Below, in pieces: positions 36,753 through 41,739 of a stretch of DNA of 64,000 nucleotides. The translations under genes were made by a program, and so were the position numbers. The notes beneath the pieces were generated by a model. It was not told the DNA's origin. It ran no database searches and worked only from the letters and a program-made list of their open reading frames with translations. The stretch is taken from the NCBI GenBank assembly GCA_964016885.1, contig CAXHJY010000718.1, positions 35,042-99,041 on the forward strand, written 5' to 3'. Source of the stretch: Eledone cirrhosa. Lineage: Eukaryota. Every line of letters starts with the position of its first letter. The first letter of the stretch is position 1.

Positions 36753-37233
36753 CTATAGATCTAAAAATAGTGACACTATAGTTGATTGCTGTGTATTTGA
36801 GTTAGCAACAAATAGTATTATGTAAATGCTATTGTTTATATTTGAAAACATATTATGGCGTTCAGAACAGGAAATGTCACGTGTGTTCTCTTGTTGGCTC
36901 AGGCACTGAAAACTGTGGATAGCTGCTTACACAATAAGTTGAAATATAATGACAGGAAAAAGAAAGTTTATTTTTGCTGAATGTGACATCTCTCTCTCTC
37001 TCTCTCTCTCTCTATATATATATATATATATATATATATATATATATATATATATATATATATATATATATATATATATATATATATATATATATATATA
37101 TATATATAGGAGGTGAGTTTTATTGTAGTACAATAAAGCAATGCAGATATCGGATAGGAAGCACTCTACAGTTTGTAGGACTGAAGTATACATAATATAT
37201 AAGATCAAAAGATGGTTAAAGGAGTTCCATGTA

Positions 37234-37300
37234 TTTTATTATGCGCATTTCAAAAACAAACATCATCATGCAATAATATTTGTGTTTTCATCAGATAAAA
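37234..37300 (-). ncRNA. Hammerhead motif, family C (mirror arm)
   Basis: Reverse complement of 37433-37499. Confidence 0.8.
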
Positions 37301-37432
37301 CAGGAGAACATGATATGAAGGCTAAAAAACACTTGTGGATAGTGCAGTTTTAAATCAACATATCAACATATATGTTGATTTAAAACTGCACTATCCACAA
37401 GTGTTTTTTAGCCTTCATATCATGTTCTCCTG

Positions 37433-37499
37433 TTTTATCTGATGAAAACACAAATATTATTGCATGATGATGTTTGTTTTTGAAATGCGCATAATAAAA
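37433..37499 (+). ncRNA. Minimal type-I hammerhead ribozyme motif (family C)
   Basis: ttttat-CTGATGA-stem II-GAAA-TGCGCA-TA-ataaaa. 6-bp stem I, palindromic stem III, predicted cut after 37493. Confidence 0.8.
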
Positions 37500-38207
37500 T
37501 ACATGGAACTCCTTTAACCATCTTTTTATCTTATATATATATATATATATATATATATATATATATATATATATATATATATATATATATATATATATAT
37601 ATATATATATGTGTGTGTGTGTGTGTGTGTGTGCGTGTGTGTATGTGTGTATATAAATATGTGTGTTTATATGAGTGTGGGTGTGTATTTACACACACAC
37701 ACATATATATATATATATGGAGAATAGGGTGGCTGTATAGTTGCTAGTTAAGGTAGGCTTAAAATCAAGAAGAAAGCAAGAACGGAGGGCGGGGGGGTCC
37801 TCATCAGTTGTCTACTGGGTGTCTCGGATATTTCAACACTTTAAAGACAATATATCTACTCCCAGCGCGTTCAATAACCGGGTAAGTTATTGGGAAAACG
37901 GAGGAGAGATGGAAGGAAAATAGAATGGAAAAGGGAAAAAAAGGGAAGAAAAGAGAAAAACAGTGAAAAAAATAACAAACCGGAGAATGTGCGAATATAT
38001 ATATATATATATATAAATATATATATATATATATATATATATTCGCACATTCTAGTAACATGTAAATAAACAAATAAATAAACAAATAAAAACATACACA
38101 GACACCCGGATGTAACAGATGCGCAAACAAAGCACACAACACACATAAAAACAAGATGGCGTAGGACAGAACAAAGGAGAGGCACAAAACAAAGAGAAGA
38201 ATCCCCA

Positions 38208-38250
38208 GTCACTGAAGAGATCACAGAATGTGTGACGAAAGAACTTTGAC
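38208..38250 (+). ncRNA. Minimal type-I hammerhead ribozyme motif (family D)
   Basis: gtca-CTGAAGA-g(a)tcaca gaatg tgtgac-GAAA-gaac-TT-tgac. Stems I and II pair. Confidence 0.72.
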
Positions 38251-38680
38251 AATATATGAACAACCGTCAGGTTGTGGAACCAACCAACCAAGCGGAAATT
38301 TATAAATTCTTAAATTTATAAATTTAATTTATAATAAATTGGAGTGAAAGCAACTGGTGCGTGTGTTTCTAATTGTCAACATGACCCTCCCAAACTATAA
38401 CAATATATATATATATATATATATGAATAAATTTAGTCCTTCATCAGTGATCTTCCAGCCTTCATTGGTATTTCATCGCATTAAAGACCATATACCTCTG
38501 GTTGGTGCGAGCAACGGCTAAAGAAAGCCGTTGGGACACGTAAATAGGAGGAACGAGCGAGACAGACATATATATATATATATATATATATATATATATA
38601 TATATCCGGGAGCTTCCAACAGTAATGCATTTTTTATGGGTATGTCAATATTTATCTATAAAACTGCTCTATATTATATT

Positions 38681-38734
38681 TTATCTGATGAAAGCACACT
38701 ATAATTTAACTTGATGTCCTTGAAATATGTATAA
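38681..38734 (+). ncRNA. Hammerhead motif (family B)
   Basis: Homolog of 43261-43314. Confidence 0.6.
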
Positions 38735-38956
38735 TGAAATAAATATGGTTTTATAAATATAGTTTCCATTTGTTAATATCGTATATATATATATATATAT
38801 ATATATATATATATATATATATATATATATGTAGGAGGTGAGTTTTATTGTAGTACAATAAAGCAATGCAGATATCGGATAAGAAGCACTCTACAGTTTG
38901 TAGGACTGGAGTATGCATAATATAAGATCAAAAGATGGTTAAAGGAGTTCCATGTA

Positions 38957-39023
38957 TTTTATTATGCGCATTTCAAAAACAAACATCATCATGCAATAAT
39001 ATTTGTGTTTTCATCAGATAAAA
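38957..39023 (-). ncRNA. Hammerhead motif, family C
   Basis: Same sequence as 37234-37300. Confidence 0.8.
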
Positions 39024-39853
39024 CAGGAGAACATATGAAGGCTAAAAAACACTTGTGGATAGTGCAGTTTTAAATCTACATATGAAAAGTGGTTTTAGAT
39101 TGATGTGTGATATTGGGAAAAATATTTTATTTAGAGAGGGGGGGAGTGGAAAGGATGAAAAAGGGGGAGGAGATGAGAGGGAGAGATGGGTGATAGAGAG
39201 AAAGAGATAGCTTTTATAACTGAGAGGAGATATACTGTCCCACACAGAGAGGTTGAAAACCGTTGGAAGATAATGTATAAACCCCAAAAAAATGTTTGAA
39301 AATCAACGAAAGGAGGATATGTGCGAGGAAAAAGTATTTTATTTAAGGAGGGGGGCTGGAAAGGATGAAAAAAAGGGGGAGGAGATGAGAGTGAAGGTGG
39401 AGAGGGAGAGATGGGCGATAGAGAGAAAGAGATAGTTTTTATAACTGAGAGAAAGATACATTGCCTTACACAGAGAGGTTGAGAAACCGTTGGAAGATAA
39501 TGTATAAATTAAAGGAATTTGAAAATTAACGAAGAGAATTTATGTATGAAGATAGAGAGAAGAAATAATAATTGTGGATGAATATTCTAACGTCAAAAAA
39601 AGGGTATGTTGTGGCAATTTCAAAATTAACGAAGAGAAAAATTATTAAGGTTTGTGTGTAGAAGGATTTGAGAAAAATAATGTGAAGTTAAAGTTTGTAT
39701 ATTGGAGGAATTGATAATATATGCGAATAGAGTTAATATGTATTAAGAATGAGTTCGTTGATATCACACATCAATCTAAAACCACTTTTCATATGTAGAT
39801 TTAAAACTGCACTATCCACAAGTGTTTTTTAGCCTTCATATCATGTTCTCCTG

Positions 39854-39920
39854 TTTTATCTGATGAAAACACAAATATTATTGCATGATGATGTTTGTTT
39901 TTGAAATGCGCATAATAAAA
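39854..39920 (+). ncRNA. Hammerhead motif, family C
   Basis: Same sequence as 37433-37499. Confidence 0.8.
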
Positions 39921-41739
39921 TACATGGAACTCCTTTAACCATCTTTTGATCTTATATTATATATATATATATATATATATATATATATATATATATCTAA
40001 GGCGGGTAAAATTCCCGAGATCTATGGACGAGTCCTCTCCAGCGGTCTCTGTCCCTCATTATCGCTGCCATATCCTCCATCTCCAACAGACCAGTGTCTG
40101 TCCTTAGGGCATCAACATATGTTAACCTTGGTCTTCCTCTTCTAGTGTGTCCATGTAGGGGCTCCCAAAGGAGCACTGAGTTAACATATATATATATATA
40201 AGTAAGGGGCTGTTAAACCCACTTAAAAGGGAGCTGTAACAACAACACGTAGAGTGTCAATATGACTATCTTTAAAACTCTTATGAGATGTAACTTCGTA
40301 GGGGGCAGTTAAACTTACATCAGTGTGAGCTGTAAATCTCATTTTTATTTCATCTATTGTCCTCAAGGGTAATCTAAAACATTCAACAGAACAGCAAATA
40401 TATTATTGTTGCTCTGCCTTTTACAGATCTTACAAGATGTTTTGATTAATTTGATAATGTCAAACTAAATTAATGGCAAATATGATGCAATATACTAGTT
40501 AACGTGATAATTAGATGAAGCTTTATAGAAAACTCATCAAGACACAATCACCTTATAGATGTATCTTTGAACAGAGCCATTTCTGATAAACACATTACGA
40601 GTATTAATAATCTATTTTCTCAAAATTTAAACAACTTCGCCAATTTGATTAAACACGAGTATAATAATGTAAAGACAATTTTTCATTTCTTTTCTCAATA
40701 GATTATATATTCGATGAGTTATTTAGGTAATTAACTGTTTTCTATAATTGGTTGATTTCTATAATTGGTTATTTATTCCCAAGTCAACGTTAATTAAGCA
40801 AGTCTATCACTTAAAACAACTTAAATTTGAATACCACACGTTTTCTCTCAGACATTCTAAGACTAGATATTATTTCGCTGCTATTTTATAAAAGAACCAG
40901 CAACCATGGAATACCGCACCTCGCCCTCTTTGGTTCGTACCATCTACGATGGTTGGAATGCAGAGTCGTTAGAACGTCGGATAGAATGCTTTATAGTATT
41001 CGTTCCAGTTCTCTGTTCTCTGAGTTCAAAAATCCCACCGAGGTTAACTTTGCCTTTCATCCGTTCGAGGTTGATTTAAAAACAAGTACCAGTCGAGTAC
41101 TGGGATTGATTCTTCCTCTATATCTCTTTCTCATTTCCTCTCTCTCACGTTTTTATCTTTTTTTTTTTTTTTCTGGAAGAAATCTGCTGTCCTCAGGCCT
41201 GGAGAGGGGTGGGTTCCGCCAGGCTTAAAATGCCCCCCGAAATGCTGTGTGTCAATACGGCGCCCCTAGGACTCTATCAGGAATTACAGAACCATGAATA
41301 CATACTTAGGATGAATTATACTTTATTAATGAAGTAGGCGGAGAATTTAGCAGACTCATTAGAGTGTCAATACAATACACTGTCTTGCGGTAATTACTTC
41401 GGCTCTTTGTGCTATGAGTGGGGTGGAGAGGGCTCTGTCAGGTTTAAATATTAGGACGGCGCATCTATGAATCCATCAGGGTTTCTGGGGCCATAGATAG
41501 TTTTTATTTAATGGTATCTATCTATGTTTTACCTCACAAAATAACATTTCAGACAGTATTTGTGATAAATACGGCACAACTACATTTTTGAAAAACGGCT
41601 TTTGATGACGTGGGGGAAATTGGCAGCGTCTGTAGATCATCGATTTAAATGTCTCTCTATTGAATCGAAGTCCTGACCATATGATCGTTAGCCGAACACC
41701 CTAAACACGAAGCCACACGCCTTTACTTAAAAATATAAT

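Follow-up and report, generated by a model that had tools for sequence, protein, structure and literature searches.

Two neighbouring inverted-repeat elements lie at 37108-37538 and 38833-39960 of a 64,000-nt stretch of the Eledone cirrhosa genome (NCBI GenBank assembly GCA_964016885.1, contig CAXHJY010000718.1, positions 35,042 to 99,041 of the forward strand; hereafter the window). Most probably they are two young, 5'-truncated insertions of one high-copy Penelope-like element (PLE) family into (TA)n. Each consists of an arm with a tail and an inverted copy of that arm lacking the tail, and each arm holds one hammerhead ribozyme motif, which would be locked in duplex, according to folding models, if both arms are read through. 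The layout matches that of published 5'-truncated Penelope-like insertions with an inverted pseudo-long terminal repeat (pseudo-LTR; PMC3846280, PMC8557442, PMC4209133). The Penelope-like features found are a hammerhead within the pseudo-LTR, 5' truncation, a tail at one end, an AT-rich or microsatellite target and multiple copies. The window as a whole is AT-rich, microsatellite-dense animal DNA carrying frames of RTE-type long interspersed nuclear elements (LINEs). The repeat family of the two elements is called family C here, and its parts are as follows.

37013..37107, unstranded: (TA)n left of element 1, likely insertion target (sequence)
37108..37198, minus: one-sided tail of element 1, 91 nt (sequence)
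37195..37363, minus: left arm of element 1, pseudo-LTR-like, sense on the minus strand (inverted-repeat comparison)
37234..37300, minus: hammerhead 1, minimal type I, predicted cut after 37240 (motif reading)
37364..37369, unstranded: inversion centre of element 1, a 6-nt loop inside a short duplication (sequence)
37370..37538, plus: inverted arm of element 1, without tail, running into (TA)n (inverted-repeat comparison)
37433..37499, plus: hammerhead 2, minimal type I, predicted cut after 37493 (motif reading)
38833..38921, minus: one-sided tail of element 2, 89 nt, adjoining (TA)n (sequence)
38917..39113, minus: left arm of element 2, collinear with the spacer in other copies (comparison and contigs)
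38957..39023, minus: hammerhead 3, minimal type I, predicted cut after 38963 (motif reading)
39114..39760, minus: body of element 2, 647 nt (no protein family recognised)
39761..39960, plus: inverted arm of element 2, without tail, running into (TA)n (inverted-repeat comparison)
39854..39920, plus: hammerhead 4, minimal type I, predicted cut after 39914 (motif reading)

Both elements are flanked by (TA)n on both sides, and their arms stand head-to-head, pointing outward from the centre. The tail belongs to the left arm only and has no inverted partner at the right end, where the right arms stop at an AT-rich point that is followed by (TA)n. The inner end of every arm is ATAT in both elements. 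A preliminary description of this DNA had taken the first element for a tight palindrome; this is true of 37195-37538, with arms 6 nt apart, the rest being the one-sided tail. The spacer of about 650 bp that it gave to the second element corresponds to arms 647 nt apart. The start that it described as common to both elements was found at 37108 and 38833; it is the tail (91 and 89 nt), which has no counterpart on the right. By analogy with PMC11167929 and PMC8557442, the element likely has its 3' end at 37108, where reverse transcription would start.

The arms of element 1 are identical except for 1 substitution in 165 nt, and a single 3-nt indel in 195 nt separates those of element 2; between the two tails there are 3 substitutions and one indel. 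Since arms and tails differ so little, both insertions look young, as had been proposed, although conversion between arms can mimic youth. The body of element 2 contains two units of about 213 nt which are 81% alike. Pfam gave nothing relevant in the six frames of this spacer or in three frames of 37720-38402.

Hammerhead motifs and predicted RNA folding

All four hammerheads of the preliminary description are present where it had placed them, and a letter-for-letter comparison found one fully identical 67-mer at 37234-37300(-), 37433-37499(+), 38957-39023(-) and 39854-39920(+). It reads stem I-CTGATGA-stem II-GAAA-TGCGCA-TA-stem I. The cut after 37493 had been correctly placed, and motif reading puts the others after 37240(-), 38963(-) and 39914(+). 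Each motif has an intact core (CUGAUGA/GAAA) in type I order, an AU-rich helix I of 8 bp, a 15-bp helix II (3 bp, one mismatch and 12 bp) and an AUA cleavage site. The 15.1-16.1 segment is a perfect 8-nt palindrome which can pair as a dimer stem III, with a modelled stability of -10.5 kcal/mol for the octamer duplex. Judged from the sequence, the family C motifs are predicted PLE-type minimal type I hammerheads, and the four of them likely represent two insertion events rather than four. Their earlier assignment to minimal PLE hammerheads with a palindromic stem III is borne out by the motif anatomy, by pairing shared with a related family (see below) and by PMC4209133.

A generic hammerhead descriptor, devised only after the motifs had been seen, gave 8 matches in the window and 1 in all 200 dinucleotide shuffles taken together. 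A wider descriptor, which also allows the U3-A8 core, gave 12 matches compared to a mean of 0.1 and a maximum of 1 in 60 shuffles. Family C has no clear extra base after A9; such a base and a G10.1-C11.1 pair are typical of PLE-type hammerheads, not universal, and cricket hammerheads show compensatory changes at 10.1/11.1 (PMC2837043). Rfam microRNA matches on element 1 stayed below their gathering scores and were rejected as reflecting the hairpin only.

Transcription was considered through folding models, which underlie every statement on RNA behaviour made here. Since the hammerhead cores diverge, read-through on either strand transcribes the antisense arm first. In whole-element folds the motif lies wholly in duplex (-105 kcal/mol for the duplex with the antisense arm vs -10.6 for the motif alone), and helix II has a probability of 0.0 in 8 of 8 read-through folds. 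As the antisense arm comes first and folding puts the motif in duplex, hairpin and ribozyme are predicted to be mutually exclusive, and the RNA product of these loci is likely a hairpin of about 165-200 bp. The preliminary description had expected both a ribozyme and a long hairpin from read-through: the hairpin is supported, the combination of the two is not. Presumably, the ribozyme is an inherited cargo of the pseudo-LTR. It would cleave only where the transcript lacks the antisense arm and two copies dimerise through stem III; such cleavage would be slow and probably assisted by a protein.

Dimer cleavage is reportedly named in the title of Lunse et al. 2017, and the preliminary description regarded minimal hammerheads of this kind as cleaving efficiently in that form. 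The published data we compared do not agree with the latter: a minimal hammerhead of Schistosoma had no monomer activity and low dimer and trimer activity (PMC4209133), and in PMC11167929 cleavage occurred solely with the protein of the element, was absent without it and was not needed for insertion in vitro. The four motifs had also been put forward as the best candidates for activity. Their core is indeed intact, but this ranking is unproven: A-U occupies 10.1-11.1, cleavage would be at AUA, and helix I is poorly formed in its context.

Copies within and beyond the window

Family B, a relative of family C with the same architecture, has four copies in the window. They are single-arm copies at 19775-19960, 28267-28456, 38607-38780 and 43206-43370, and three of them start at a matching point directly after (TA)n. 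This suggests family B to be a fixed-length unit or a solo pseudo-LTR. One copy lies between the two family C elements.

38607..38780, plus: family B copy with one hammerhead, core at 38685, predicted cut after 38733, distal stem II decayed (sequence and descriptor)

Pairing is kept between families B and C. In their alignment (five distinct rows) 97.8% of 90 cells are paired, compared to 36-60% in slid controls. Three of 18 pairs have changed on both sides across B and C, two of them in helix II and one in the dimer stem III, where the two families differ by one two-sided and one one-sided change. We take this as support and not as proof, since the rows are related and 10 of 500 shuffles reached the observed value.

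Public contigs were aligned to 38834-39800; 30 pieces were listed of 5254, together with 40 variant rows. The 5032 contig pieces from run X1 vary in identity: 1290 reach at least 99%, and 318 fall below 90%. The summed depth of X1 was 0.58-2.1 million on the arm and tail vs 0.01-0.2 million on the body; summed contig depth is no copy number, and all we infer from it is that the arm belongs to a dispersed high-copy family. Runs X4, X7 and X11, labelled as other organisms, gave 53, 37 and 6 pieces. They are not counted as conservation in relatives because they may hold DNA of the same animal.

Among the pieces listed, the border between left arm and body is bridged by contigs in X1 and X7 (two of four runs, 31-letter rule). 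None of the listed pieces (30 of 5254) bridges the right border of the body, where X4, X7 and X11 show zero depth, keeping in mind that contigs can show presence, not absence. Since the left border is bridged and the right one is not among these pieces, the minus strand is likely the sense strand of the element, with the order body-arm-tail. Contig joints skip 211-260 nt in the body, suggesting that the number of body units varies among copies.

The sole variant inside the 67-mer among the rows shown turns a U.G wobble of helix II into a U-A pair (58% of X1 depth), and a row at 39024 replaces a wobble with a canonical U-A pair in the extended helix I (21% of X1 depth). The letter found at 39077 in both arms of element 2 accounts for 0.5% of X1 depth, while both arms of element 1 have the common letter. 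Each pair of arms was thus likely derived from one template. At 38982, X4 and X11 have a nearly identical loose end (30 letters shown), in which helix II of the family C hammerhead has diverged.

The B/C hammerhead pattern has 0 matches in metagenome, viral and prokaryote contig collections. The single match of a looser B/C pattern (locus L001) is without stems I and II and was put down to chance.

The same geometry recurs within the window: the wider descriptor found five head-to-head hammerhead pairs belonging to four families. Together with family F, which has nine short palindromes, the further loci are:

19351-19635: head-to-head pair of family A, cores at 19435(-) and 19490(+), GUA site, perfectly palindromic centre, 64-nt tail on the right only
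22006-22268: palindrome with a one-sided tail, hammerheads 22107(-)/22168(+), U3-A8 core, G10.1-C11.1, exact cores
9775-9957: palindrome with a one-sided tail, hammerheads 9863/9869, U3-A8 core, G10.1-C11.1, one core mismatch per arm
8911-9012, 14390-14495, 17281-17386, 21449-21560, 28584-28693, 34146-34326, 42358-42463, 42549-42672 and 55278-55404: short palindromes of family F

The pair 22107(-) and 22168(+) may offer better assay candidates than family C; the Penelope-like hammerheads of PMC4209133 likewise include opposite-strand minimal copies about 100-700 bp apart, a conserved G10.1-C11.1 and a U3-A8 core variant. In 11 of 17 hand-picked palindromes, one side has a microsatellite at a distance of at most 3 nt, and on the other side the distance is 64-105 nt. 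Element 1 is a twelfth by direct reading, the script having counted the AT run inside its tail. The centre spans 0-8 nt in 8 of the 16 palindromes measured, element 1 included; one of the eight (34146) is a secondary inner hairpin. Of 54879 unmasked bases, 2243 (4.1%) belong to near-perfect arms that lie within 2 kb of each other, and 1619 of these bases are in families C, A and F.

Most family F palindromes have a tail of about 80 nt. Their arms hold an apparent 3' half of a hammerhead (GAAA, stem III with a palindromic loop, GUC), and their centres cluster just upstream of that half, at the place expected for stem II. The CUGANGA half is in none of the nine copies, and the family F pattern has 0 matches in viral contigs. 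A tail-only palindrome of a family related to A is located at 42886-43030. Other decayed hammerhead-like motifs, in palindromes or single arms, were noted by eye at 21771-21903, 33831-33922, 47812-47946, 38200-38260 and 60370-60410; the wider descriptor did not recover them.

The rest of the window includes three LINE remnants: a 594-aa frame with reverse transcriptase and an inserted PHD finger at 26530-28314(-), a frame with C2H2 fingers at 31863-33038(-), and a frame at 3011-3460(+) which by eye resembles a restriction-like endonuclease end. A U6atac match of 71 bits at 23082-23206(+), poorly aligned in its 3' part, may be a retrocopy fused to a repeat. Tandem arrays occupy 15190-16030 (units of about 170 nt) and 50909-51917 (short units). 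A STAR dimerisation-domain match at 61582-61782(-) was rejected as a host gene, as it scored 25.7 bits, below the cut-off of 26.3, and no further KH exon motifs were found in the window.

Origin of the inverted arm

The two elements could have been formed as follows. A Penelope-type endonuclease would nick (TA)n, and reverse transcription would proceed from the tail end, stopping after about 260 nt in element 1 and about 930 nt in element 2. The end of the complementary DNA (cDNA) would then fold back on an ATAT match and copy itself into the second arm, which would finally be joined to the other end of the target at the AT-rich tail boundary. Compared with other routes, we consider such a fold-back to be a reasonably likely origin of the second arm.

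The same family could also have inserted by a different route, which we hold to be rather unlikely: a dimeric Penelope protein would prime both nicked strands from two start sites, the tail end and the tail boundary, and the two cDNAs would be end-joined. The templates would be two RNAs held together via the palindromic stem III or one tandem RNA. A further variant is the self-priming on an antisense RNA that PMC3846280 proposes. PMC11167929 describes cleavage and extension of both target strands, two start sites, one at each boundary of the tail, and a predicted protein dimer. Two isolated family C motifs cofold through stem III in trans (-33.7 vs twice -10.6 kcal/mol), and the arms of element 2 stop 647 nt apart, which also fits this route. 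However, independent cDNAs should end at unrelated places, which disagrees with the 0-8-nt centres of half of the palindromes measured, and the rare letter common to both arms of element 2 speaks for a single source. Mobility of the whole palindromic unit (arm-centre-arm-tail) as a non-autonomous element mobilised in trans by a Penelope-like protein appears improbable. The non-coding body with its tandem units is compatible with it, as are the common starting point of family B copies after (TA)n and the similar centres of family F copies 17281 and 28584, which have different arm variants. On the other hand, the centres of the two family C copies differ, as do most family F centres, and the right border of the spacer, which has zero depth in X4, X7 and X11, is unbridged among the listed contigs, whereas two runs have contigs across the left one.

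Long inverted repeats with TA on both sides and no coding capacity would be expected of a miniature inverted-repeat transposable element (MITE) or a foldback DNA transposon at TA, the hammerhead-like sequence being a chance product or a relic. This is hardly credible here. The termini are not mutual inverted repeats, as the tail is on one side only; the inner borders differ, the motif is far above chance with its pairing kept across families, and the geometry is common to four different hammerhead families. The asymmetric ends by themselves largely refute the MITE reading. Two other candidates were dismissed: a non-LTR retrozyme, since the arms are inverted and not head-to-tail units, and a Helitron-type end, considered from the tail hairpins, which would end in CTRR and does not. 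The strong form of the preliminary description, with an active ribozyme and a hairpin formed together on read-through, is very improbable. It can draw on the intact core, the perfect stem III palindrome and the natural occurrence of AUA as a cleavage site (PMC1636495). A transcript beginning within the spacer would have no antisense arm, and its modelled helix II probabilities are 0.98 and 0.64. Helix I is only at 0.0 and 0.1 in such RNA, however, and helix II was lost in all read-through folds; published activity is low or protein-dependent, and AUA is the slowest of four triplets after transcription while being second best during transcription (PMC1636495).

Several points weigh against young Penelope-like insertions with duplex-locked hammerheads, the explanation that we prefer. 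No reverse transcriptase or GIY-YIG domain linked to the arms of these truncated copies was found by Pfam in the six spacer frames, nor any Penelope domain in 131 open reading frames (ORFs) of the window (131 of the 148 longest, from 283 filtered; the 17 left out are inside two LINE ORFs or are tandem duplicates). Penelope membership therefore rests on the layout and the ribozyme. The tail (about 90 nt) exceeds the published 30-40 bp, and a target-site duplication is not readable in (TA)n. Helix II is closed by A10.1-U11.1 in families B and C, the typical G10.1-C11.1 pair being missing. No Rfam hammerhead model was among the 1 gathering-score match or the 91 matches at E up to 10, and the 77-nt family C fold does not exceed shuffled sequences in stability (z -0.6). 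The covariation comes from five distinct related sequences, the RNA behaviour is modelled, and 15 variant rows remain beyond the 40 shown. Finally, one deep X7 contig has the 39077 letter as well, so that this letter marks a subfamily, and arm-to-arm gene conversion could equally explain its sharing.

As ribozymes these motifs are ordinary: animal genomes contain thousands of Penelope-type minimal hammerheads, and pairs on opposite strands have been known since 2014. Their possible interest lies in the likely fold-back route of integration and in a large supply of near-perfect double-stranded RNA (dsRNA). A young high-copy family with common polymorphic sites such as 38984, 39024 and 39042 lets the origin of the inverted pseudo-LTR be tested among fold-back, two templates and antisense self-priming. 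Copies with common polymorphisms between their arms would decide between fold-back and two-RNA priming, a step of Penelope replication. If transcribed, the palindromes would be ready-made substrates for ADAR and small-RNA pathways and may explain part of the octopus dsRNA excess; exceptional dsRNA potential and ADAR hyper-editing were described in octopus (PMC5625713). We speculate further, as an unlikely extension, that in this genome many Penelope-like families integrate mostly by cDNA fold-back and fill (TA)n with thousands of self-silencing hammerhead palindromes, which would be the main source of octopus dsRNA and hyper-editing.

Comparison with known systems

We found no published description of such families in cephalopods in the open-licence literature, where 31 recently active Penelope-like families are reported for Octopus vulgaris (PMC13282606). 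A search of File S1 of PMC8557442 with six short motifs, taken from families A, B, C and F, returned no match, though one could be concealed by the line breaks of that file. Non-LTR retrozymes (bioRxiv 10.64898/2026.07.22.740005) are likewise non-coding, Penelope-related and equipped with a type I hammerhead, but they form head-to-tail tandem repeats and not head-to-head pairs. The Hydra and Neptune clades share canonical hammerheads and a microsatellite bias with the elements described here, Hydra families, molluscs included, inserting almost always in (TA)n (PMC8557442). Unlike in those clades, no protein by which to assign a clade was found here.

Metazoan PLE hammerheads (Cervera and de la Pena 2014, PMC4209133) resemble family C in the type I order, intact core, long helix II and palindromic stem III, as well as in opposite-strand pairs within about 100-700 bp and in many solo truncated copies. 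Family C differs from them in A10.1-U11.1, the lack of a clear extra base after A9, the mismatch in its 15-bp helix II, the 8-bp AU-rich helix I and the AUA site.

An inverted pseudo-LTR, a one-sided tail and a (TA)n bias are all described in PMC8557442, and PMC3846280 reports head-to-head inverted pseudo-LTRs with the tail on one arm only and palindromes at the junction. Compared with Pen2/Pen2a of Adineta vaga (PMC3846280; PMC8557442, Fig. 2), the Eledone elements have a longer tail (about 90 nt vs 30-40), no ORF and no readable target-site duplication, while sharing with them head-to-head arms, a tail on one arm, a junction palindrome, 5' truncation and an AT-rich target.

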